DNA of 64,000 nt from Pseudogymnoascus verrucosus (taxonomy: Eukaryota), in NCBI GenBank assembly GCA_001662655.1, contig KV460210.1. One strand, 5' to 3'. Positions 5,690 through 63,385 of the stretch are shown here, piece after piece (positions within the stretch are counted from its first letter, which is position 1; each line of letters begins with the position of its first letter). Made by a program: the position numbers and the translations under genes. The notes below the pieces were generated by a model. The model made no database searches and was not told the origin of the DNA. It was given only the letters and a program-made list of their open reading frames with translations.

Positions 5690-6835
5690 CTACACATCAC
5701 TATAGAGGATGAGTTTCCCCTCACTCCCATCCCAAACTTCCATCCAGACCCAGGCCCTACCCGCCTCTCCCCAGAGCAATCCAAATGGGTCCGCATCCTT
5801 CTCAAATACCCCATCCGAAACGCCCTGCGCGACCTTCTCAGGCGTTGCAAGACGAAGGAAGTGCTCCTTCTGCGGTGCCTCAAGAACCAAGGCATTGCCT
5901 GTGATACCGTGACAGATATTGGGCTCTTTCGTCAGGAGACCCCTCTCCCACGTCACCTTCCTCCCAAGCGCAATGGCCTTATCAATCTTCTCATGCAGTG
6001 CCGGAAAATACTGTCTAATAGGCAAGAGCGAGATGAGGACGCCCGGCGCACCGTGGCAGAACTGCACAAGCCCTATCTCTTTCCCTTCAATAACTGGCCA
6101 GTTGCCCTCGTCTCCCTGTAGCTCCAGGATTTCTAGGAGATTGCTTTCCAGCTTAGGTGCGTAGGACGGGTCACTCAGTACGATCTGGGTCAGGATTCCA
6201 ATATCGCCGTGCACTGCCCCTATATATTTCCTATCGCTCCAGCTCCACGGCTGCTGGGGGAGGATCTCGTCGATTAGCAACGTTATAACCTCGTTCACGG
6301 CTGTGGCTAGATTAGGAAGCCACTTTCGAATTATGCGCAGAATATAGAGCGCCCCTGCGCGGCCCTTCATCCACTCGCAGTAAGTTGGATCTGTTTCCAG
6401 ACTGCGGAGAGCAGATATCACTTCCATTGCACGACTCTCATCTTGGTAGAGACACGCCTTGATAGCATTTGAAGTTAGAAACTCGTTAGTAATCCCACAG
6501 CTTTCCTCCAGCAGGGGAGGCACAGAGTCCTGTCCTAGCTCGATGTAGGCCTTGCACCAATCCACCGGTAGCTTGCCCTCAATCTCCAAATCGGGGTGTT
6601 TGGTGGAGAGGGTCCAGAAGAAGTAGGCTATGGCTGTGGGACCGACAAATAAGCCGCGGTGGACGTGGCCGCGGAAGAGCGATGCCCAGGGCAGCTTGGG
6701 TGGACAGTCTCGAATTATCCGGGATGCTGACTGGATGAGATATACCTTTGGGTCTCCCAATCGGAGCAGTGTCGTTGCATCATTCTCGAAGAACCGCTTG
6801 TTTTCTGAGAGTATTGCGGATGGATCAATAGCCAT
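5690..6835 (-). CDS. Lanthionine synthetase C-like (LanCL) protein, intronless, 381 aa
   Basis: LanC motifs GRAG, YIGAVHGDIG, QFCHGAPG and WERGLLTKEPNICHGITGN. The Cys/Cys/His zinc ligands and the catalytic-type His appear intact. Confidence 0.9.
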   Translation of the reverse strand: MAIDPSAILSENKRFFENDATTLLRLGDPKVYLIQSASRIIRDCPPKLPWASLFRGHVHRGLFVGPTAIAYFFWTLSTKHPDLEIEGKLPVDWCKAYIELGQDSVPPLLEESCGITNEFLTSNAIKACLYQDESRAMEVISALRSLETDPTYCEWMKGRAGALYILRIIRKWLPNLATAVNEVITLLIDEILPQQPWSWSDRKYIGAVHGDIGILTQIVLSDPSYAPKLESNLLEILELQGDEGNWPVIEGKEIGLVQFCHGAPGVLISLLPIRQYFPALHEKIDKAIALGRKVTWERGLLTKEPNICHGITGNALVLEAPQKEHFLRLATPEKVAQGVSDGVFEKDADPFGLLWGEAGRAWVWMEVWDGSEGKLILYSDV

Positions 6836-7500
6836 GGTGGTTTTAGTAGCAAAGTGTCAATGGGATAAGCTTTTTAGATTCACGGCACTAAGATGTATAT
6901 TGCTATGATGAACCTACAATATAGGGTCCAACGATGGTCATATGAGGGGTCGATCGTATGTTGGGATCATCTTAGCGTTGTGTTACGAAGATGTGAGTGT
7001 TATGTAAGCAGTAAGCAAGATGACTTCCCAGATATCCAAAGGCACTGTCGCATCGTTGATTAGAATATTTAGTCTTTCAAATGCGCTTTGCCAATAGGCA
7101 TAGCATGGTCATATTTTACATCCAGATAGATATACATTATGAAGACCCATATATTACACGTCCCCGAACCGGAGTTTGAAAACCCCTGCCCCATAATCTA
7201 TCCCCGTAACGCCCCATAGCACCCACACGTCGAACCGATGATCATCTATCCAAGATAGGACGCAATGTGTCCATGACGAGGCATCAGATGAACGCCAACT
7301 GGTTCAAGTTGTGTAGTTCTGCGGCAACGATCATGTGCTGCATGTGCGATATCTATATTGTACAATTCTTTGCTGCTGGTTGTGCTTTAGTGGCGGGAAG
7401 CAACTATATTTCGTGTAATCATTAATATGCCGTCGTTGGGAAGGTAGACGACGGCTTTCTCGAGGTAGCTCTAGAAGGGCGATTCTGTCCGGCCGGATAT

Positions 7501-21143: not shown

Positions 21144-24100
21144 TCAAGGAGGCGACCCCGGCGGAATCCCATCATGCGTACTCCTCCTCACCAAAAACGC
21201 CTCCCCCCTAAACGGCCCCCTAATCCGTTCCGTCGCCGCCGCCGCCCCCCCAAGCAGGGGTCTCCCCTCCTCCACATCAGCCTCAGTCTCCGCCTCCGCC
21301 CCCTCATGCGCCGTATCATTATCCGACGTCTCCTCGCTGCCTAGACCATCACAGCTCCCCGGTCTCGCGAGGGCCTGTTCACGCAGCACCGCAGCGCGAT
21401 CGCTCAGTAGACGCGCTTCCTCTGCTGCACGCTCGGCGCGGATCTGTTTGCGCCACATGTTGTAGTAGCGGCCCTTTTTGGCGAGGAGTTGGTCGTGGGT
21501 GCCGCGCTCGTAGACGGAACCTTCGTGGAGGACGAGGATTTGGTCTGCGCTTGTGATGGTGGAGAGGCGGTGACTATATCAAATATCAAATTAGTAAGGG
21601 TGCTCATGTGGACAATAATGGGGAGGGATTATGGTGGTGCTTACGCTATGACAAGCATTGTGCGACCGACGGATAGGCGCTTGAGTGCTTCCTGGATGTG
21701 TTGTTCGGTCTCTGAATCCAGCGCTGCTGTTGCCTCGTCGAGCATGATGATGCGGGGGTTCTTGAGGATGGTGCGGGCGATGGCGACGCGCTGCTTTTCG
21801 CCGCCGCTGAGACGGAGGCCGCGCTCGCCGACTTTGGTGTCGTAGGCGTCGGGGAAGGAGAGGATCTTGTCGTGGATACTGGCTGCTCGGCAGGCATTGA
21901 AGATGTCCTCGTCGGTGGCGTTTTGGTTCGCGTAGCGCAGGTTGTACATGATTGTCTCGTTGAAGAGGACTGTATCTTGCGGCACGACTCCGATGTGGCT
22001 TCGTAGAGACTTGATGGTCAGGTTTTGGACGTCGTGGTTGTCGAGTAGAATTCTACCGGCCTGTTCGTTGTAAAAGCGGAACAGAAGGCGGAAAATTGTC
22101 GATTTCCCACCACCAGACTCACCGACCAGTGCAGTTGTCGTACCCGGCGGACAATCAAAGGTAAGGTCCTGCAATGCGGGTTTCCGCTGGTCGTAAGAGA
22201 ATTTGACGCCCTCAAAGGTAATCCGTCCCTCGCACTTGTTCAGATCGCGTGCACCAGGGTGGTCCGTAACAGTCGGCTGCTCTTTGAAGAGCTCCAAAAG
22301 GCGCTCTCCATTGATCATGGCGCTCTGCACATTCTTGTAAAACGTGCCGAAGAAGTTCAACGGCTGCTGCAGCTGGGCCATGTAGGTGATAAGCGAGACG
22401 AACTCTCCGACGCGACGAAGTCCTGAAGTGACTTGGTACGCAGCGATGAGGGACACAACCAGTAATCCGAGCATGAAGATCATGTTCTGGACGATATTCA
22501 TGACGCTCAAAGAGAGAGTAACCTGATATTCCTCGTTCTGGAAGTTTTGGACAGCCTTTCTGTACCTGTTCGACTCGTACTCCTCAGCACCAAAGTATTT
22601 CACCGTCTCATATGACTGGATCGAATCGTTCTTAACTGCATCCTCCTCTCTGTCCGCATTGATCATCCGTCTCCGCTGCTCCGCACGCAGCTGCGCGAGG
22701 CGAACAGTCGCGTAGAGGTACCAGAAGGTGACGACGCTGAGAGTGAGAGAGTAGTAAATATCGAATTTGATCGAAAAGTAGATGATGGCAAGTACCAAGT
22801 CGATGAGCATCGGCAGAACCTGGAAAGTGATCTGCTCCAGGAACGTGTTAATCGCAGCACCCTTGCTGAGCGCCGATAGGACCTCTCCAGTGCGCTTCCC
22901 CAGGTGAAAGTCCAAGCTTAGTCCATGGACGTGCTCAAACGAGGAAGTAGACAGCGCTTGGTAAGAGTACTGGGAGACTGGAATCCAGAGCACAGCTCTC
23001 CCGGCCGCAAGGAGTCCAGACGTCCCCTGGAAAACCTTGTACACGATGAGCAGAGAAATGGCCAACCACGGCATTGACGGGCCTGTAGGTCCGCCCTTCA
23101 GCATCTGGAGAATACCCTCCTCTTCCGGCTCATCTTCGGACAGCAAGTCTGTCACATTGCCCATCTGTATTGGGACCAGGACATTGACCAGGCGCTGTAG
23201 CAGCACCAGGACAAAACAGACAACCACTGTGATCTGGAGCCTCAATGACTTGTTCGGCCACAGATATGGGAAGAATAGCGAGTATCCACGCAGGTATTCC
23301 CACCAGCTCCTCGAGGGCGCAGTCGTGGGTCTGTAAAATGCCGCCGAATCGGTAGGACCTGCCGGGCCCTGACCATGTCCATTCATAGCAGCGTCACCGT
23401 TTACAGCAGCGTGCCCATTCATGGTAGTAGCACCATACGCCGACTCCCCGGGCGAATGCCCTCCGTTCTCGTGTTCCGTGTTTCCATTCTCTACGTGAAC
23501 ATCACCGCTGACGGTGTGTCCATTGAGCAAGGGCGTTCGCTCGTCCCGCGCCGCAGCGCGCTCGCGAGAGGTCCTTCTTTTACTGGGCGAGGATGACTGC
23601 TGATACGAGAAGAACGCGTAGAAAGCCACGCAGAGCACCAGGAAGAGGACCCTAGCCGCATCACAGAGGACCTCGACAATCTCCCATTGATTTGGAACCT
23701 CTAATATAGGCGTATCTGGGTTCAAAGAATTTATTTCGCGGTGCGGCGACGTGATATACACCATTGTAGCCCCAATGAGCACAAGCTCCCCGACCAACGC
23801 AACACTCCATGTTATCAAATGAACGACACTCGGAGACGGATGTGTATCGACCAGCGAAATGAGAAAGAGCGAGTAGAGAAACGCCGCGCCGATCACGTAT
23901 GCCTGCGAACCCCCCAAATTAGCCCGAGTTCACCACACGGCAGAGTTAAGGAGAGGAGAGAGGAGAGAGGTCGTGTGAACATACCGCAGGCGCCTCACCA
24001 CACCACCAGCCCTCCTTGCGCTCTGAGACGGCGTGCACCACGATATTAACAATATTCCCGACAAAGGTGCCAATCAGGCCCACGGACAGCCAGCAGAAGA

Positions 24101-24392
24101 GCAGGCTGCGGGTCTTGCCAAACCCATCGTTCGTCGGCACCGGGGGGCTATTGCTGGGCGGTCTCGAGGTTGGCGGTAGGGGCTTGCCTCCTGGGCCCGT
24201 GAGGGTAGATCGAGAAGTGACAGACTGGTTGCTGGGCGAGGAAATGATGCTGTGCGCAACGAATGCAGTCAGGAAGACCACCAGCAGCACCAATGGGTAT
24301 GCGTATTGGACGTAGTGAAGGATCCAATAGGCGGTGCCAGGTGAAGAGGGGGAGCTCGCCATGGCGGGAATTGGCTCTGAAGAAGAATCCAT
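21144..24392 (-). CDS. HMT1: ABC half-transporter, HMT1/ABCB6 heavy-metal-tolerance type (introns about 23903-23983 and 21574-21643)
   Basis: N-terminal extra TM domain, [14 protein letters not shown], Walker [10 protein letters not shown], signature [13 protein letters not shown], Walker [12 protein letters not shown], and IA|HRLSTI across the last intron. The start may be ATG 24392 or 24362. Confidence 0.92.
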
Positions 24393-25134
24393 GGCGGGTA
24401 TATTTTTGTTGGGTTTCCTCCCGAGATCGAACTCCCTCCGCTTGCGATCCGAATTATGATTATTACCGGTTCTGGTATTCACTCATGCCTGCCTGCGGGT
24501 GCGGGCGGTTGGACTGGAGTTATATGGGAATTGTTTTCCAGGTAGTAGGGTAGGTAGGGTAGGTAGGGTATACCGTGTGGACGGGTGGCGAAGCTGTCGT
24601 ATGTATGTATGTATGTACGGAGTATGTACGGAGTAGTATGTACGTGGGGTTGCCACTACGGCGGCAAAATTGGTCTTAGTCGAGCGGCCCAGATCGCACA
24701 ACTCGAGTCAGGTGCTTCGGTATCTGACAGTTTTGAGGAGGGACTATGATCAAAAATAGAAGTTGGTGCGTAGAAAATTCGGGGGAAAGTGCGAAAGACC
24801 GTAATTATCTGGTCGTGCAGAAAAAGGGCAGCGACAGGTATTGTATGTATGATAACGAGTTTCCCGAAGTTCGGATTAGTTGTGATTGGTATTTGGGGGG
24901 GAGGGGGGAGATGGATGGGGAATTTGACGTGGGAAGAGAGACCCCAAAAAAATCCCCGGGGATGGCGTAACTCTTCGTGGGGTTTATTTATTTAGTATAG
25001 GCCAGTATGGACCAGTATGAGCCCAGTAATGGATCAATAATAGAGTAGTAGGTAAGTCCTGAATGCGGAGCAGTTTTTGTTGTGTTTTTGATAGGGTCTG
25101 TCTGATACGCAAGAAGGTCTCTTATTCCACCGCC

Positions 25135-52379: not shown

Positions 52380-53601
52380 ATGGCAGCAGCTTCATTCAAT
52401 CGCAAGTACTCTAAACAAACCGGAAAGCGCTATCCCTGCATATTTCTAACACTCAGCACAGGTCTAGTACGCTTCATCCCCAAAGCAGACAGCTCAGCGA
52501 TCCTCCTCGGCCAGCCCGCCGACAGCGCCTTGGACGTCGGTGCAGCTCTGCGCGCTGGGAAGGAAGTCCTCGTTGATATCTTCAGCGGCAAGTCTGTGAT
52601 TAGCCCCGGGTCGAAGACGGGGAAGACAGAGTCGATAGGGAGGCTTTTGTCGCCGCTTGCGCAGGAGGAGGTTGGCACGATAAGATGTATTGGGCTTAAT
52701 GTGTGTGATCTTGCGAATTTGTCCTTCGGGGAGCTATGAGGAGTGTCAGCTGACAGGATTTATAGTACGCTCAGCATGCGAAGGAGGTCAAGATGGCGTT
52801 GCCGACTCTGCCTACCCTATTTCTGTATGCAATTCATCTCCGCCCTCAGCAAGAGCGTATGATCTAACTTTATTTCCCCTTCACCAGCAAGCCGGAAACT
52901 GCCCTAGCAGACCCCTGGCCAACGCCTTTCACGATCCCCAAATCCACGATTGGAGATGACACCACCGACTTCGAGTCTGAGCTCGCTATTGTTATCGGTC
53001 GTCCAGCGAAGGATGTTTCGGAGGCTGACGCGCTTGACTACGTCTTGGGCTACACGGCGGCGAACGACATCTCAGCTCGCAATGCCCAGTTCGCACAAAC
53101 GCAGTGGTGTTTCTCGAAGGGTTTTGATGGCGCGTGTCCGATTGGTACGTTCATAATGAAGGCCATGTTTAGATAGTCAGCTATGGATTGTTACTGACAA
53201 CGAACATAGGCCCCGTGTTGATCTCCAGCAAGGAGTACGACGTGAGCAAGCTTCGAGTCCGCGGCATCAAGAATGGACGAGTCTTGCAAGACTGTGGGAC
53301 CGAGTAAGTGATCCCCTATTCTTATTCCCAATCTTCTTACTGTCGGTCATTGATGGCATTTATGAACATGATCGATACTGACATCGTCAAAAGTGACCTG
53401 ATCTTCTCCGTCGCCAAGATCGTGAGCTTCCTCTCGCAGGGAACGACGTTGAAGCCTGGAACGGTCATCTTGACTGGCACTCCTGCGGGTGTGGGCCACG
53501 GTTTCTCGCCGAAGGAGTATCTCCGTGACGGCGACGAGTTCTCTGTTGAGATCTTGCCGGGTATCGGGACATTGACGACGGCGTTTGTCAATGAGAAATA
53601 G
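52380..53601 (+). CDS. Fumarylacetoacetate-hydrolase (FAH) superfamily protein, multi-exon
   Basis: [47 protein letters not shown] and [16 protein letters not shown] motifs. Confidence 0.92.
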
Positions 53602-55117
53602 AGTGACAGAGTTCAGCAATCGATAAGTATTACAGCTTGATTAGATCACTGGACAGATTTTAGGCGGTGATAGTATGATAATCTGTACATAGAATATATT
53701 ATCATGCCGATTCACGGCTATATTGCGTCTTGCATTGAGCCATTTTACTGCTCCTTTACGGTCTGTCTGGATGATGTCTCGAAGTCAAGCAGGTGCTGGA
53801 AAGGGGGGGCCTTCCGCTGCCTTCCACATCTTGAATCTAGACCAAACCTTGAAGGGGCCTTTGACTCACTCTACCTCAGTTGCATTGTTGGAGGGGCGGT
53901 CTGCCTTGCTGTACTCACGTGGATGGTTAGACACGAACTTTGCCTCACTCCTGTTGTTCGAGCCCCCCTGAACCAACGAACCGAAGGCATCTATCCGGAG
54001 GCGTGTGTGTGAATTGCTTTAATCATGTTTGGTAAGTGTTACTCGTTTCCTTCCGTTCAAAACGTGTCAGTTCCCAACAACAGCCTCGAGGTTCAGATCA
54101 CCGCCACTATCCCTGAGTTGGATACTCTGTCGTGCCAACAAAGGCATCAACACTCCACCACGGTGTGATGATACCTTTATCGGGCACGGAACAGCACAGC
54201 TGTCTTAGTTAGCGCGAGCACAGGGGTCTCGTACCTTACCCATCACAAACGCATTCCCTGAGCCGCGTTGGACTTTGCCGCGAATCTGGGTCTGTGTCGA
54301 AGCCCGTGTCTCGAGTTCTCCGCCAAACAATAGTAAGCAGGCGAGAGGAGGTGGCATTGCTCATTCCACATCCCGTCCGAGTGGATGCCTCGTCAGCAAC
54401 GCATGCGATGTGTGTGTGCCATTTGGGCGGGGAAAATACTTGATAGGAGTTTTATTGCTTGAGGCGTCGGCTGTAGGATTCCGAAGAATGCGCCTCTCAT
54501 ATCAGTTATCTATTTGGTTGATCGGTCAGCTAGCTGGGAGCATTGGCCACTGCTCATTATTCGCGGTGGGGAAATATGTGACTAGCTGAGAGCATCTGCA
54601 GATCGTGGTCTGGCTCTGTATCTCACGTGGGTAGGCCTCGGTGAGGGGTGAGTCCAACACACAACAGGGAGAGCAAAGGAAGGTGTGAGACTTGACTTCC
54701 CCTCGCATACTATGGTCATAGCCTACTGAGTGACAGGAGGAGAGACTTCTGTCTTGACATTATGAAGCAAGCATAGAGAGATTTGGACCCCAAACAAACA
54801 AGCTATGGATCTGCACGGTTGAGGTCGGCACATGAGTGATTTCCCACCTTGCCAGCACGGTAGACAAGGGCATAGACAAGGGAAGCTGTTCAAGGCAGTC
54901 AGCGTTACATCTTCCGGCTTCGCATCGCCGTCACCGGTTCGGGAATGTATGCAACTCGATGGGGATGCCCTTGCCGTGACCTGTCTCTCGCGCCTGGCCG
55001 ATCTAGCCACTGCGAAGCCGTTATGCGTCCCGACAACCTGGTATCCCGATATCAGTTAACCATGTTCTGTTAGTGGCGATCATGTCGATGTCTTTCTAGC
55101 GGCGATACGGCGAGGGA

Positions 55118-55199
55118 GAACAATAGTAAGGAGAGGAACAATACTAAGGGCGGGGCCAGCAGGGGGATAGGGGTCTAACAGGGGGAACAATACTAAGGG
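55118..55199 (+). promoter_or_regulatory. Three direct copies of GAACAATA(G/C)TAAGG, candidate HMG-box (MAT1-2-1) binding sites
   Basis: Copies start at 55118, 55136 and 55185, about 630-710 bp upstream of the pheromone-like ATG. AACAAT is the canonical sequence-specific HMG-box core. Confidence 0.55.
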
Positions 55200-55827
55200 G
55201 CTAAGCGACTTCCTCTCAACCACAACCACAACCACAGCAACTACAGCCCAACAACAAAAAAACCACTCCTGACGTCCAAAGCAAATGCACCAATGCGATC
55301 AATGATGCAGCCTGGCCCTTATTCGATAATCGAAGCGCCTCGATTGATTCTTCTGTTCCTTCTATTCCTTCTTTATCGAGGAACAGTCACATATTGCCTG
55401 TGACCTCGGACTTGTCGTTTATTGCAACGACTGTTCAGTTCCAGCCCGCTCACTCCGTTCATGATGCTTTCACGGTAAGTCCTCCTGACCTCTCTTCCCC
55501 CACCCTCACTTGCTCTCTCCATTCATTGCAGAACCGTCTGTCATATCTCCTTCTTTCAAGTCTTAAGCATGGGCCCCTTTCACCGTGCCGTCCCTTTCCA
55601 ATACTGTTCAAGCCTGAACGGTCGGAGGAATGCAGTCTCCATACCCCTCGCCGCTACCTGGCTATCTCGAAGTCGAGTATAAGTATCCCTCGACGATCCG
55701 CCCCTTCCTCCTCTATTTTTCTTCACCATTACAAACACATCAGCTTTCCACAGACAATCAAATCAAACCAAACACTTGCCTCTCTCCAAATACATCTTTA
55801 TCATCCTCCCCCAACAAATCAATCAAC

Positions 55828-55986
55828 ATGGGTCCCTCCGCCATCTCCCGTCAGCGTCAAGGCAAGAAGGCCAATGAGTCCTACGGTGCCGGCTGCGTTG
55901 TTCAGAAGGCTAATGAGTCTTACGGTGCTGGCTGCGTCGTTCAGAAGGCCAACGAGTCCTACGGCGCGGGATGCATGGTTATGTAA
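55828..55986 (+). CDS. Lipopeptide (a-class / hybrid-type) mating pheromone precursor with three CaaX-terminated repeats, 52 aa
   Basis: MGPSAISRQRQGKK-ANESYGAGCVVQK-ANESYGAGCVVQK-ANESYGAGCMVM*. Terminal CaaX, good start context (CAACATGG), synonymous differences between the 39-bp repeats, and adjacent to cyanase. Confidence 0.88.
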   Translation: MGPSAISRQRQGKKANESYGAGCVVQKANESYGAGCVVQKANESYGAGCMVM

Positions 55987-56653
55987 ATAACCTACCTACC
56001 CTCACCAACCCCGCCATCATCTCGTCACTCTCAGTTCCATCCGAGCAAGCAGCTGCAGCAAATACTCGACCGAAACCAGCAGCTTGTCTCTACAATTTGC
56101 GAGCATGGCGCCTCTCTCAAACTACGCAGGATGCCAGGGCCTCGATCTCGATTTCTCTCTATCCACCGACGGGCTCTGATGGCGGGTGTGCCTGGCCGGC
56201 AATCAGTTTTGTACCAATCGTGTGCGATAAGTTTGGATATTATCCATGACAGACCTACTTTCACTACACTCTTTTGAGCCCATCATCAACGGCATCGACA
56301 GGCACATCAACGACGCGCTCCGCAGCTCCCACGCCCGTCAGAGGGTTTGGAGGGCCGTTTGTTTCTCAATCAATCTGTCTGTTGGTTATGGGACGGGGAT
56401 TTCTTTTTGGATATTTTTGGAATTAGTTCACAAAAAACAAATGGGGGCTTAATGCTAGGAGTCAGGAACTCGCCCTTGAGTGGATTAGTTGCGGGGATTG
56501 GGTGGTTCTCTGCCTTTTATAATATAGCAATCAATATGCTGGTCTCTGTCATTTGAAAAGTCTTCATTTATTACTGCTACTGTACCCGTGAGAAAAAATA
56601 GGATACATGTGAAAGCGTAGTCTTCTCATTAACAGCATAACCCTCCTCCCAAT

Positions 56654-57284
56654 TTAAAACCTGGAGAACGGCAACCTATAACAAAATAAATTAGTAAACC
56701 CATCCTCTCGTCCCAAAAAACACATGAACACCAGGGCAAAACTTACCACTTCCCCTTCAACGTAATAATCGCCCACGCATTCCCACTCTCATCAACCTCC
56801 TTATCAACCTTCGTCTCAAACGCAATAGCACTCATAATCCCATCCCCAAACTTCTCATTCAGCACCGCCTTATACGCATACCCATAATTCTGCACAATCT
56901 CATACAACCTATAAATCAGCGGTTCCACGGGCGGCATCGGCCCCGCGCGTCCCCTATCCGGAAAGCCCAGCAACTGGCTCTCCAACGTCGGCAACGGGAT
57001 CCCGAGGAGGTTGGAAAGCTTCTCGACGTCCTCTTGCGAGGCGGCGGCTTGGCCGTAGAAGAGCGCTGCGACGGCGACTTCGCTGCGGCCGAGCTGCTTG
57101 GCGATGGCTTCGAAGGAGAGGGATTGGCCTGCTTTGGCGTCGAAGAGCATTTTGGAGGAGGGGGGGAGGCGGGACTCGAAGGATTTCTGGGGGGGAGGAG
57201 GGTGTTAGGGATTTCGGGGTCTGTTATGTGTGGTGTGGGTTGGGGTCTTACGTCGAGGACGGAGATGCGGCGTTCTTGGGCCAT
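56654..57284 (-). CDS. CYN1: Cyanate hydratase (cyanase), 3 exons
   Basis: [55 protein letters not shown] and ITLKGKW|LPFSRF*. Confidence 0.95.
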
Positions 57285-57899
57285 CGTTGCGGTTTGTATG
57301 TTCTCGAGTGAACTGAAAAATAGATTTGTATTTGGGTTTTGGATAGTATAAATCTTTTAAACTGACTGAACGAGGAAAGAATCAAGAAGTTATGGTTCTT
57401 GTAGAGTAGAGAAGTGGTGGTGATACAGTCGACCCAGGGTGTCATCAATCAATAATCACCTTACCCCGCCATCAAGCTGCGGGCGGAACCCCTCTGCACT
57501 GACACCCACGTCATAATGTGAGCAGATCCCCGCAGCTGGACCCCCAATCACCATTCAGCGAAACACACCGGGCGGAAGGCAGTTTTAGTCATAATCACAC
57601 GACCTCCACGGATTTTATTTATTGACTTGTTTGGTGAGGTAACGGCACAGGATTGTGTGCAGCGTATTGCGTACTGTCTGGACTGATTGGGGTGTGTGGG
57701 AATGTTGTGTGGGAATCAGTTTGTAGAATAGATGTAGACTGATAACAACTACGCATACATGTCACTTAAATAAGAACACATTTTTGTATACTCAATCCAT
57801 TGACTCGCATCCCATCTCATCATCAAGATTCTGGTTGCACGTCGAGGCATATCGTAGGCATGACAGCATCCCATCATCTCCCGCAGGCCATCAAAAAAA

Positions 57900-58100
57900 C
57901 CCGTGGGCAGGCAGGAGCTTTAAAGCTACCCAGCCTCTCTCCATCCAATATCCCCATCTATCATCACCTTGTACGCACCATCTCTTCCATCCCGCGGGCC
58001 GGAGCTTTAAAGCTACCATGCCCATGCCTGATCTGATATATCCATCTCAAAAAACTCTCTCCCCACGCGCAAATGCGGGAACAGCAGCTTTTAAGCCAAC
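57900..58100. repeat. Three spaced copies of a GGG-N-AGCTTTAAAGCT palindromic element
   Basis: AGCTTTAAAGCT at 57916 and 58003, with variant AGCTTTTAAGCC at 58086. Confidence 0.7.
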
Positions 58101-58424
58101 TATGCCCCGACTTACATACGAAAAACTTCGTAAAAACGTGAACGCCTGATGTTGATGTGCCGGTGGTTTGGTGGGGTTTGCTGACAAAGGAAATTACATG
58201 ACGGTGAATCTTTTTCGCTTATCGTGGGTCGCATCGCAAAAACTGTGCGAGGGGGTGAGGGGAAGTCCTCTCATCGAGGGCTTGGTGCTGTGTCGTGTGG
58301 GGAGTCGAATTTGTTATGTGCTGTGACTAAAGGGGTTTAGGAGATGCCGGTAAAATTAAGAGGAGTATGTTGGTGGTAAAGTAACCCAAGGCGCGAAGAT
58401 ATATTCGTGGATATGTAGCTGCAT

Positions 58425-60404
58425 TTACATATCCATGGAGTCTCCACCGTTGGCGAAGTTGAAACCACCAGATTGTCCCTGGGTGCCGAAGCCGAAGGTG
58501 CCGTTAGCGCCCTGTGCCTGTTGGGCAGCCTCATCATCGACGGCGTTGTCATCCTCGTCGGAGAAGTACTTCTCGATCATGTTGTATGCCTTCATGTAAA
58601 TCTCCTCGTTGGCGTTGGTCTGGCAGTCGTGGATCTTCTCCATGCCGTTGCACTCCTCAATGAAGAGAGCATATCTGTTGATGCTCTCTGGGCCCTCACC
58701 AGAGGACTCCTTGTCCATCTCTCCAACCTTGAGGATGTTCTCTAGGCCATCAAGGGCAACCTGGATGATCTTGTTGTCTGGGCAGGCCAGAAGGTCACAC
58801 AGTGGCTTAATGCAGCCCTGGGCGACAAGGTAGCGGATCTGCTCAGGCTTCTGGAGACCACCCGAGGTGGCGTTGGAAATGGCCCAGCATGCCTCCTTGC
58901 GAGTCTTAAGATCTCCGTTCGACAGGAGGTGGATGAGAGGTGGGATAATGTTGGCATCGATAACAGCCTGGATCTGGGTGGAGTTGCCAGCAGTCACGTT
59001 GGAGATGGTCCAGCAAGCCTCCTTGCGAATACCATCCTTGCTGGAGCTCAACAGCGACAGTAAGGCTGGAAGAGCACCGCAGTTGACAATGACCTGGGTC
59101 TGGACGTCATCGCCGGTAACAATGTTACCCACGGAGCGGAGAGCAGGAGTCTGGACGGAAGTGGATGCGTGCATCAGGAGCTCTACAAGGCGGCGTGGGA
59201 TACCGGCCTCGATAACTGCTTGAATCTTGTCGTTGGCTCCATCAGACAGGTATGAAACTGCCCAGCAGGCATCGATTAAGACCTCGTCATCGAGGGAGTA
59301 AACAAGCTTCGCCAAGACGGGGAGGGCGGGCAAAATCTACGACGGTTAGTATGATTTCACGGTTCTAAGAAGACTTTGTAAGTGACTTACAGTGTTCCAA
59401 TCTGGCTGGGGAGTCTTGCCACGGCAGAAGTTGCTCAAAGTCCAGGTGGCGTTGCGGAGCATGCTAAGCTTGCGGCTATCGCCAAGAAGAGACAAAAGAG
59501 GCTTGAGAGCGCCACAGCTCAAAACGTAATCACGGCACGAAGGGCTGTCACCAGCAATATTTCCCAACGCCCAAACGGCCTGCTCACGGACATCTGGCTC
59601 GTGGCTGGCAAGCAACTCAACGAATATCGGGACGGCACCAGCCTCAATGACGACTTGTGTCTGTTGTGCTGATCCAGAAGCAATGTTGGTCAAAGCCCAG
59701 GCAGCTTCGAACTGGACCAAGGTGTGAGGCGAACGAAGGAACTCGACAAAACGGCTAACGACACCGGTCTTGATAACTTCCTCGATAGGTGGGTTTCTCT
59801 CCTTTGAAAGGAGCTTTCTAAACTTAGTCGTAGCCTGGATTTGCTTATCGATTTGGTCGGACAGGACACCCTGTACCATTTGTGGGAGGTCCTCATTTAG
59901 CTATAATGACAAAGTATGTTAGCATATGTTTCCATAGTTCATCGTTGCTATAACATATATCGTCAAAGCTCTCGTACACCACATGGCCATGACCAAGCGT
60001 CGTGCACAGACAAGCGAAGTAAATCCCCACAGCGGGGCAAAATGCGAAAAGTAAACAAAACAGCAGAATAACTGCATTTTGCTTGCAATACTCGGCGGTC
60101 TTGTCGTCACAAATGACGGGATAACCATGGGGATATGAAGTAGAGGGAGAGATATGCGTTCACGTACCTGAGACTCCGTGGGAGCAGTATCATCGTCACT
60201 ATCAGGAGCAGCCCCTAACGATGCGCCCGGCCTGGATCCATCGGCGCTGGCAAGGCCTCTGCGCTTTGCAAGGTTCTCCTCACGCTTAGCTTTGCGAATC
60301 TCAACTTGCTGTTCCTCACGACGACGACGGAGCTCCTCAGGCTTGAAGGTACCCTTCGCCTTGAACTGCGTACGACGATGCTCTGGGATGTAGCGTTCAG
60401 ACAT
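58425..60404 (-). CDS. SRP1: Importin alpha (karyopherin alpha), 3 exons
   Basis: IBB domain [26 protein letters not shown] and ARM repeats ([42 protein letters not shown]). Confidence 0.96.
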
Positions 60405-60950: not shown

Positions 60951-63385
60951 ATGACGGACACCATGGCAACTGAGCTATCTCCAACGATGGCTCTTCCAAA
61001 GGATTTCAAATCCATCCGGGAAATCTCTGATATGGACGCTATTTTTGTAGCAAAACAAAAGCCATTTGTCAACGTTGTTGGCTTGATCAGAGACTACCAG
61101 CCTCCGAGGCAGACTGGAGGCTCAGGTAGACAATCCTCCCTCTTTGCTGTACTGTAAATGAGCCTGAGACTTATAGATATGTAGATTGGAAAATGACCCT
61201 TACAATTGTCGACCAGTCTATCGAGGAATCATATGAGGTGGACATTATGAAGCTTAACGTTTTCTTACCTCGCCCAGACATGCCGGTCATTGCTGGTGTG
61301 GCACAGCCTGTCCTGATTAGGAGCTGTAGAGTAGGTCAACCCTTTTATTGAAATAACTGTAGCTTATTCAGTAGGTCCAAATACATTCAGGCGCTATCTC
61401 TTTGATTACGAACTTTCGTACCGAAATCCACGTATTTCCAGTGCAAACTCCAACAGACACGGCTCTTCCTCCGCCGACATCAAAACGTGGCAAGGTCAAC
61501 ATAGAAGAGGTCAGATACGTTGCTTGGCTACAAACTCATATTCAAAGAGGTGCATTCCCAGATTCCAGAGAATTCCAGGAAAGGGTAGTCCAAGCAACAA
61601 ATCTCAAGGTAAAATCTTGCGAGCTCAAGGATGCTCGGCCAGGGATGTTTGGTGACATCGTTGGGGAGGTTATCCACATGTTTGACGTTTCCGATCGAAC
61701 CACTGTGTATGTTACCGACTACACAAGCAATAAGAACTTCTACAACCACGTCATGCCAGGTGTTCACCCGATTTTTGAAGGGCGGGATGGAGATGATTTC
61801 GGGTATTCTAACTCAAAGATGATCCATAAGTCAAAGACGAATGAATGGAAGGGACCATACGGTAAAATGTCCATCCAACTTACAGCGTTTGATGAGCACA
61901 GCGAGCGATTCAGAGACTATGTAAAAGTCGGAAACTGGGTGAAACTGTTGAACGTTCATTTTGAGTTCCCCAAAACTGGTGGTCACCTGGAGGCGAAGCT
62001 TCGTACTGATCGACGTGCCCACCCAGGCAAGCTCCAAGTGGAAGTTCTTGCCCCTCCTGAGAATAAGGAAGATATGGATTATATGTGGAAAAACGCACTA
62101 CGCCGCAAAAGAGACTACCAAGAGACAGTCAAGAAGCAAAAGCGCGAGTTCGAACAAGAAATTGAAGAAGTCACCGGAAAGCGCAAGCGTGATGACGATG
62201 ATGAGCCCGTGAAGATGAACGGAAAGCTTCGGCGGAAGGAGAAGAGAAAGGCAATGCAAGAAAAACTTCAACATAAGTCTAAGATTGAGGCTGGCCAAGG
62301 AAAGCCCATCGCCGACACACCTGCAGAGGATAAAGCCGCATTGAATACTGCCGGTATGTTGTTAAGGGCGGATAAAATCGATTTTGCTGACTTTATAAGT
62401 GAGATGCCACAAGCAGACATCACCGGCCATTCCTCTGGCGCTTATACTCAACAACCGTCGCCGTGTACCCGCTAGCACAGCCGGTGGGAATGAAACATAT
62501 GCACCTTTTGTCAATGCCAACTATCGCGCCAACCTTCGCGTCACCGACTTCTTCCCTCACAAACTCGAAGATTTCTCAGTTGGTAGAAAGCCAAACGAAT
62601 TCGACTGTCTCTCTGACTTCGACCCTACGTCGGATGAAGAGGATGATATTAATACTGTCGGTAAAGACATTAGTGACTTTGTACTCCGTGATAACGACCA
62701 TCTACAGTGGAGTTGGCGATTCGCATTGCAAGTCGAAGATGCAAGTCCATCCGAAAGCCCAACAAAAGAGCGTGTTTGGGTTTTAATCGATAATGAGTCA
62801 GGTCAGTTTCTATTGACTGAAAATGCTGCGAATCTCCGCACGACGCCCGATGTTCTTGCTGCTGTGCGCGAGAGGCTCTTTGTGCTATGGGGCGACCTAG
62901 AGGAAAGGAAGGCCGCCTACCTGAACAGCGCCGAAGGAAAGATCCTTCTCCCGCGGTCACTGGAGTCATCCAGCTTGTCAAGAGATGTTTCGCCTCCTCC
63001 TAAGATCCCCCAAAAGCTTATATCTCGACCTGGAGAACAGCCACCAGATAGTGACGAAGAAATGCCTGATGACGAATCACCCCCCCAAAAAGCACCCGCC
63101 GAGCGAGATCCAAACTCATTGGAAAGTATTAGAAAGGCTACCCCTAAACAAGCAGCTACACGTCTTGCTGCGAAGCTGAGGGAAATTGGAGACCAGGCCC
63201 AAAATAAGCCATTTCCGGGATGCATTCGAGAGTATGGCATCAAAGTTAAGGTTGAAGAGCCGGCTTCGGATGAAGAAAATGAGGATGACGAAGATGACGA
63301 GGATCAAAGCCAGCGAACAGAAAAGCCTGTGGTAGCGACAAAGTGGGAAAGAAAGTTTGGGCTACATGGGACTATAATTGTATGA
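60951..63385 (+). CDS. POT1: POT1-like telomere single-stranded DNA-binding protein (OB folds), multi-exon
   Basis: First OB fold VNVVGLIRDYQPPRQTGGS|DWKMTLTIVDQS, second OB fold FGDIVGEV…VYVTDYTSN…GPYGKMSIQLTAFDEH, and C-terminal YRANLRVTDFFPHKLEDF, WRFALQVED, RLFVLWGDLEE and CIREYG. The start ATG (60951, 60963 or 60987) is uncertain. Confidence 0.82.

Follow-up and report, generated by a model that had tools for sequence, protein, structure and literature searches.

A cyanase-linked, three-copy CaaX precursor in Pseudogymnoascus verrucosus as a likely a-class pheromone precursor

The 64,000-nucleotide stretch of Pseudogymnoascus verrucosus contig KV460210.1 (GenBank assembly GCA_001662655.1) analysed in this study, hereafter the window, contains a short open reading frame (ORF) that very likely encodes the precursor of an a-class lipopeptide mating pheromone of Pseudogymnoascus. 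The ORF encodes 52 amino acids (aa), organised as a basic leader followed by three repeated units that each end in a CaaX or CaaX-like box, and the sequence comparisons make it rather likely that all three copies mature. The statement as a whole, an a-class precursor with multi-copy maturation included, is given a probability of about 0.62. On the best explanation, its position would make it the counterpart of the cyanase-linked mfa-1/ppg2 genes found in Sordariomycetes, with a layout like that of h-type precursors and of rhodotorucine A. The multi-box architecture itself is already known; what is new is the fungal class in which it occurs, the disagreement with the candidate in print for Leotiomycetes, and the mis-modelling of its relatives in GenBank. 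The parts of the gene are listed below, with positions in the window.

55678..55683, + strand: TATAAG, a likely TATA box with a presumed promoter role, 150 bp 5' of the ATG and inside a 118-aa ORF
55828..55986, + strand: precursor ORF, 52 aa, stop codon counted in (translation; relatives)
55828..55866, + strand: basic leader MGPSAISRQRQGK, no signal peptide (alignment A1, hydropathy)
55867..55905, + strand: unit 1, K-ANESYGAGC-VVQ, internal CaaX-like box with X = Q (codon-register comparison)
55906..55944, + strand: unit 2, K-ANESYGAGC-VVQ, with four synonymous third-position changes relative to unit 1
55945..55983, + strand: unit 3, K-ANESYGAGC-MVM, true C-terminal CaaX box, followed by TAA
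56022..56228, + strand: likely 3' untranslated region (UTR), conserved and non-coding, modelled as a spurious second exon in four GenBank entries (tblastn frames)

Translation of 55828-55986 on the + strand gave MGPSAISRQRQGKKANESYGAGCVVQKANESYGAGCVVQKANESYGAGCMVM followed by a stop, in agreement with a preliminary description of this DNA that had placed a 52-aa ORF at these coordinates. The same description had counted a leader of 14 aa, which requires correction: 13 aa (MGPSAISRQRQGK) precede the first K-initiated unit, and 14 is reached only if the K of that unit is included. Its three repeats were recovered in codon register, with units beginning at 55867, 55906 and 55945, and Tandem Repeats Finder reported a period of 39 bp, 2.6 copies and 88% matches at 55865-55964. 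The ORF is indeed hidden in longer ORFs, as had been noted, being part of 118 aa when read from an ATG at 55630 and of 261 aa from stop to stop; the window sequence holds no ATG between 55630 and 55828. Read in its five other frames, the repeat is interrupted by stops or yields non-repeating peptides.

The pattern of differences between the units suggests that it is the peptide that has been maintained. All six variable columns of the 30-nucleotide cores (K-ANESYGAG-C) are third codon positions and all six are synonymous, as previously claimed, and replacements between units are confined to the aaX boxes (VVQ and VVQ versus MVM). Since the copies have diverged at synonymous sites, recent gene conversion alone does not explain the identity of the peptides, and each of the three copies appears from this comparison to be under selection. 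Among relatives, two DNA runs around 97% identical to the window span the ORF, and the in-ORF differences listed for them (55857, 55875 and 55890) are again synonymous third positions, which is partial evidence, as 113 further differences are unlisted.

The properties by which a-class precursors are recognised, namely a length below 100 aa, the lack of a signal peptide, and a CaaX box at the C-terminus directly before the stop, are all found in this ORF (52 aa, ending CMVM-TAA). The N-terminus is basic and hydrophilic, without a hydrophobic stretch, with Kyte-Doolittle nine-residue means of -0.4 to -2.9 over the first 14 segments and a maximum anywhere of 1.04, and the earlier statement that a signal peptide is lacking can be upheld. 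A single box before a stop carries little information, with three CaaX-stop ORFs in the window against 2.4 +/- 1.4 in 50 shuffles, which is chance level; an ORF with three boxes occurred once in the window and in 0 of the 50 shuffles. A Pfam scan of the precursor ORF found no family, and a Protein Atlas search with the precursor gave a sole match (0.77) to a bacterial cluster, which was uninformative.

Relatives of the precursor were sought with an exhaustive HMMER search of 1.84 billion cluster representatives (E <= 0.001), which returned 11 matches, six of them true relatives (P0002-P0007); a word-indexed search had yielded a single relative. The other five matches of the HMMER search, repeat proteins that lack both the leader and the terminal box, are unrelated and were dropped. 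Cluster look-up showed that all seven named members are annotated as "hypothetical protein" in strains of Pseudogymnoascus (Leotiomycetes), and the exact 52-aa sequence is absent from a collection of 15 billion proteins. The expectation that gene callers would miss the gene therefore holds in part: the exact product is uncatalogued and all seven GenBank relatives have wrong ends, but the relatives are annotated. An unrelated protein from the search of representatives, P0008, matched the query through its repeat make-up only; it has 320 aa and around ten tandem 13-aa units of the form KYG(Y/S)PCG(V/A)QD(A/P)(N/L)(L/V).

The search for conservation that had been proposed as a check showed that the leader, the GAGC motif, the box with its following K and the terminal box are all kept among Pseudogymnoascus relatives. 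Alignment A1, comprising nine sequences, has 24 invariant columns, made up of M1, G2, P3, S4, I6, S7, R8, Q9 and R10 in the leader, G-A-G-C-V-x-Q-K in unit 1 and G-A-G-C-V-V-Q-K in unit 2. The part preceding GAGC varies by strain (ANESY, ANEIY, DLTSF or (S)DSGH), giving core ends of ESYGAGC, EIYGAGC, TSFGAGC and SGHGAGC that are uniform across all copies of one precursor. Copy number among the relatives is three or four, the terminal box is CMVM or CVVM, and either K or KK serves as the spacer. At the level of sequence this pattern fits a fast-changing recognition peptide framed by conserved processing signals.

The GenBank models of the relatives in seven strains are wrong in ways that mask the nature of the gene. 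In four of them (P0003, P0004, P0005 and P0013) a splice leads from within the last unit to sequence downstream and the CaaX end is lost, and the other three (P0006, P0007 and P0014) start far upstream. When placed on the window with tblastn, the downstream "exons" of the four fall in frames 0 then 1, 0 then 1, 2, and 1, and their junctions are all different; the upstream part of P0006 maps to a frame other than that of the P0007 and P0014 parts. The segment 56022-56228 is conserved as nucleotides with no single frame, and is therefore likely to be 3' UTR. The contig of a more distant relative still aligns at 55665-55689, which holds the TATAAG, at 55921-56032 and at 56125-56193. As judged from these comparisons, conservation at the protein level is limited to the 52-aa part.

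The neighbourhood of the ORF offers a second line of evidence. The gene that adjoins it downstream is the following.

56743..57150, - strand: cyanase (cyanate hydratase/lyase), main exon (PF02560, E 1e-29)

The two genes are convergent (tail-to-tail), with 757 bp from stop to stop. The window cyanase is 95% (V494_03460) and 90% identical to cyanases of Pseudogymnoascus, with other Leotiomycetes next at 81–84%. Microsynteny around cyanase, which had been suggested as a check, was borne out in strain VKM F-4513, in which the precursor model and the cyanase have the consecutive locus tags V494_03459 and V494_03460 on one contig of 27,853 bp, so that the position characteristic of a-class precursors, adjoining cyanase, is found both in the window and in this strain. 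In Neurospora, Magnaporthe, Chaetomium, Podospora, Fusarium, Colletotrichum and Verticillium, precursors of the a-type are found downstream of cyanate lyase, with variation in order and orientation, and the locus has served as a landmark for finding a-factor genes. The short length, the lack of a signal peptide, the CaaX end, the cyanase neighbour and the pheromone-like conservation together support the a-class identity that the preliminary description had proposed.

As a control for the cyanase linkage, metagenome contigs were scanned. A scan with the precursor alignment gave 61 pattern matches, of which none was confirmed, and a scan with cyanase gave 80 loci, of which L001-L047 are fungal-like (at least 54% identity) and L048-L080 (around 50% identity) were covered by the multi-box scan only. 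Among the fungal-like loci with at least 1 kb of sequence downstream of cyanase, 7 of 27 have an a-factor-like ORF and the remaining 20 have nothing recognisable. Five of the seven (L001, L002, L006, L010 and L043) have single-copy ORFs that start with MPS and end with CVVM; these begin 848–1455 bp beyond the stop codon of cyanase and share its strand. The other two have multi-box precursors, both linked to cyanase.

L013:4638-4763, + strand of the metagenome contig: multi-box precursor
L009:2999-3142, + strand of the metagenome contig: multi-box precursor

The product of L013 reads MPSQPGYFC-TVM-K, MPSQPGYFC-TVQ-K, MPSQPGYFC-TVM-RSA and stop, and that of L009 reads M-SQPYFFC-AVM-R..., K-SQPYFFC-SVQ, K-SQPYFFC-SVQ, KSK and stop. 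Core differences between the copies are synonymous in both (6/6 in L009; 4/4 core columns in L013). In these two precursors a K or R comes after every box, the last included (tails KSK and RSA). Because their last boxes are thus masked by a tail that begins with K or R, proteolytic unmasking would be required, if the genes are functional, and this argues for such unmasking of internal boxes. Neither motif was matched in the literature, in a search of main texts.

A quick FastTree analysis of cyanases (43 loci, with L044-L047 left out, 30 named references and the window; support values not inspected) placed the five single-copy loci among Sordariomycete references, the window beside Pseudogymnoascus within a Leotiomycete grade, and L009, L013 and L017 together in a third group. 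The cyanase of L013 is 94% identical to that of Endocarpon pusillum, followed by Aspergillus, Pyrenula and Penicillium, and by this measure L013 is Eurotiomycete-like; L009 is probably so as well, through its clustering with L013. With these two loci, genes of the a-factor type may have been seen for the first time in fungi other than Sordariomycetes and Leotiomycetes. In the third group, 14 of the 16 loci with enough sequence lack such an ORF, and so does L018, the sole Leotiomycete-like metagenome locus (3 kb downstream), which indicates that the cyanase linkage is not universal.

Precedents for repeated-CaaX precursors, as cited in the preliminary description for Trichoderma HPP1 and the Fusarium h-type, are real, and they extend to Verticillium, Huntiella and the Ceratocystidaceae. 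The h-type was defined in Trichoderma and Fusarium by three copies of the motif, with one copy forming a CaaX box at the very C-terminus; Kex2 sites do not occur in all members, and processing like that of rhodotorucine A was proposed, by enzymes that are unknown (Schmoll et al., 2010; PMC3068285). The window gene has three such units, the last ending as the C-terminal CaaX box, and its relatives have three to four. It resembles HPP1 in its length of around 50 aa, the absence of a signal peptide, three box-ended copies and basic residues after the internal boxes, and it shares the cyanate lyase locus with Fusarium HPP1. The h-type HPP1 genes, however, are from Hypocreales and have C-x-V-M followed by AK or KK, with cores that differ between copies, whereas the window gene is from a Leotiomycete and has identical cores, internal boxes with X = Q, a single K and a convergent arrangement with cyanase. 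The consensus of T. reesei HPP1, (L/I)GC(T/S)VM with KR sites, is not found here, where the corresponding sequences are GAGC-VVQ/MVM with K or KK and no KR.

Rhodotorucine A, from Rhodosporidium toruloides (Akada et al., 1989; redrawn in PMC3068285, Fig. S3), provides a further likeness in layout. In that drawing a short leader is followed by identical tandem peptides, each with a Cys, a three-residue box and a single Lys, and a true CaaX box comes last; the spacer is C-TV(A/S)-K, compared with C-VVQ-K in the window. The earlier remark that the internal copies are separated by a single Lys and not by a Kex2 site was correct, and a CaaX-like box followed by K is the rhodotorucine A layout. The two differ in that rhodotorucine A is from a basidiomycete yeast, is depicted with four copies, shares no sequence similarity with the window gene, and has an accepted maturation of several copies, which for the window gene is a prediction. 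The mature product of rhodotorucine A precursors is a farnesylated peptide, as would be expected here. Verticillium Ppg2 and the genes of Huntiella and other Ceratocystidaceae are described as having 12-aa units with their own CaaX or CpaX boxes and no signal peptide, and for this type it has been suggested that processing takes place at Lys or Asn and that export is of the Ste6 type. The window gene shares with them the repeated boxed units and the lack of a signal peptide, but all are from Sordariomycetes, their sequences, as far as given in those accounts, are unrelated to the window core, and the Huntiella genes are multi-copy and at other loci. The canonical mfa-1 type of N. crassa lies downstream of cyanase like the window gene, starts M-P-S and ends C-V-V-M; it differs in being single-copy and co-oriented with cyanase, with an aromatic residue right before the Cys.

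A route of maturation can be proposed from these likenesses. The precursor would be synthesised in the cytosol, where an endoprotease would cleave N-terminally to the spacer Lys, or behind it with subsequent trimming, to give pieces ending in CVVQ or CMVM. Each Cys would then be farnesylated; Q or M as the X of a CaaX box marks a farnesyltransferase substrate. The aaX residues would be removed by a protease of the Rce1 or Ste24 type, the Cys methyl-esterified by a Ste14-type enzyme, and the resulting lipopeptides (K/AN-trimmed ESYGAGC-farnesyl methyl ester) exported by a Ste6-type ABC exporter, to be recognised by the partner's Ste3-type receptor. Probably ESYGAGC itself, or a peptide one to three residues longer, is the mature form, with a farnesyl group and a methyl ester. 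For Pseudogymnoascus, receptors of the Ste3 and Ste2 types have been reported, and so has Ste6.

For the cut that would unmask the internal boxes, an M16A protease of the Axl1/Ste23 kind is the preferred candidate, a choice we infer from general knowledge of such enzymes. In outline, a-factor biogenesis is described as CaaX farnesylation, aaX removal, carboxyl methylation, cuts by Ste24 and then by Axl1/Ste23, and ABC export, and an Asn-X site for Axl1-type N-terminal cleavage is described 5–20 residues before the Cys. In the window an Asn sits seven residues before each Cys, with Glu next, a residue that is neither aromatic nor uncharged; the Asn of this putative site is missing in P0006, P0007 and P0014 and is not a conserved feature. 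The invariance of V-Q-K, together with the K or R after every box in L009 and L013, points to the junction between X and K or R as a recognised site. Purely sequential processing from the C-terminus towards the N-terminus, as a "ratchet" set off by the terminal box, may operate in Pseudogymnoascus; for L009 and L013 it fails as an explanation.

It is unlikely that only the last unit (CMVM) matures and that the internal units are duplication relics in a discarded N-terminal extension. This explanation draws on unit 3 carrying the sole true C-terminal CaaX box, on T. reesei HPP1 still mating after the loss of both dibasic sites, and on descriptions in the literature of the extra processing of such precursors as unknown. 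Set against it are the restriction of differences between the internal and last cores to synonymous sites, the sharing of the strain-specific core of the terminal copy by the internal copies in every relative, and the invariance of the box with its K in 9 of 9 aligned sequences (CV-x-QK in unit 1, CVVQK in unit 2), as a discarded leader would not be held so constant; in addition, unmasking would be needed for the last box, too, of L009 and L013, if the genes work. A far less credible view would follow GenBank in seeing an ordinary hypothetical protein, either of 81–110 aa, the CaaX end being lost to an intron, or of 116–180 aa from an upstream start. There are seven such models, and the window has the 118-aa ORF from 55630, but the disagreement among strains in the frames and junctions of the downstream "exons", and in the frame of the upstream extension (P0006 against P0007 and P0014), makes this very improbable, as does the limitation of protein conservation to the 52 aa and the location of TATAAG within the upstream extension. 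That the ORF arose by chance across a non-coding 39-bp tandem repeat can be given almost no weight: the window is rich in short tandem repeats and a lone CaaX-stop ORF is at chance level, but the variation is at third positions only, the leader and boxes are conserved as protein while the cores differ, no shuffle produced a three-box ORF, and the cyanase neighbourhood recurs.

A different question is whether the peptide, if prenylated, is a mating signal. In filamentous ascomycetes outside the Sordariomycetes no a-factor gene had previously been found, and in Leotiomycetes a search by cyanase synteny yielded no usable result (Wilson et al., 2023; PMC10569646). The putative Leotiomycete a-factor of that study comprises homologues of BCIN_13g03330, which are near-invariant in the class and not mating-type expressed, and for which the authors doubt a role in mating. 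Like the window gene, genes of this type are small, have a CaaX end and occur in Pseudogymnoascus; they differ in being unrelated in sequence, single-copy, Cys-rich and not found through cyanase synteny. It could be that the window gene encodes a small prenylated peptide with a non-mating role, for example as a density or developmental signal, and that the a-factor is a BCIN_13g03330-like or other gene, though this appears improbable. Roles of a-pheromones beyond mating have been discussed for Fusarium, P. destructans, P. pannorum and P. verrucosus already have a candidate in print, and no mating-type-linked expression or regulatory motif was seen for the window gene (no RNA run is listed). 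That candidate, however, is near-invariant class-wide and lacks mating-type expression, the latter being counted by its authors against a mating role, and it is the window ORF that has the cyanase position, the M-(G)-P-S start and the C-V-V-M/C-M-V-M end of Sordariomycete a-factors, with a core that changes rapidly between strains, as is typical of pheromones.

Several observations weigh against an a-class precursor with multi-copy maturation. The internal boxes need cleavage, by a still putative protease, before they can be prenylated; in T. reesei, fertility persisted after mutation of the dibasic sites of HPP1, so that release of internal copies is not required there. The window gene is convergent with cyanase, whereas the ORFs of all seven metagenome loci are co-oriented with it, and the Leotiomycete-like locus L018 has none. 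Ste12-type sites (TGAAACA) number four in the window against 8.7 expected, HMG-type sites (WCAAAG) 73 against 69 expected, and neither motif occurs in 54144-58183. No RNA run is listed for the precursor stretch, the two aligned runs being DNA contigs, and the supplement of the Leotiomycete study lists BCIN_13g03330 homologues for three Pseudogymnoascus species, P. verrucosus among them (PMC10569646).

No description of the window gene or of its core motif was found in the literature, as covered by main texts and a few supplements, figures excluded; in P. destructans, ppg1, pre1 and pre2 were studied, with no a-type precursor (Palmer et al., 2014). A wider proposal may be offered tentatively, on the pattern of these sequences: the cyanase-linked a-factor locus would be ancestral to filamentous ascomycetes, the "missing" a-factors of non-Sordariomycetes would be multi-box precursors (in Pseudogymnoascus, in L013 and probably in L009) whose boxes are unmasked by a cytosolic protease on the N-side of Lys or Arg, and the published Leotiomycete candidate would not be the pheromone. 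The finding extends the cyanase landmark beyond Sordariomycetes and concerns a class in which the a-factor is unsettled, in the genus that includes the fungus of bat white-nose disease, a species with a sexual cycle yet to be worked out. A concrete peptide for synthesis and a gene for deletion are now at hand, and the masked last boxes of L009 and L013 provide a clean system for the 35-year-old question of the protease that unmasks rhodotorucine-type precursors.

The remaining genes around the precursor are as follows.

~52380-53601: FAA-hydrolase-family gene, upstream of the precursor
58425-60404, - strand: importin-alpha-like gene (Arm repeats), intron-split, beyond cyanase
61375-62475, + strand: protein with a POT1-type telomere-protection single-stranded DNA-binding domain, on the cyanase side (PF16686)

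EBP2 and MYND, which flank Sordariomycete a-factor loci, were not among the 26 window ORFs scanned. An ABC transporter gene at 21641-23929 on the - strand, possibly together with 23946-24482, was considered as a Ste6-type exporter and rejected, as it encodes a half transporter with one membrane and one ATPase domain, and its best solved relatives are of the ABCB6 type (E 9e-142), with the a-factor exporter far lower (E 3e-97). Identification of the precursor as a fungal ribosomally synthesised and post-translationally modified peptide with Kex2-processed repeats was likewise set aside, there being no signal peptide, no KR site and no tailoring-enzyme family among the 26 ORFs. A LanC-like protein is encoded at 5690-6856 on the - strand (PF05147, E 3e-21), around 50 kb from the precursor and with no apparent link to it. 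The start of the window contains a C-rich stretch (229-739) with short tandem arrays (for example ACCCACC, eight times), which accounts for the GC skew of -0.41 in the first 2 kb.

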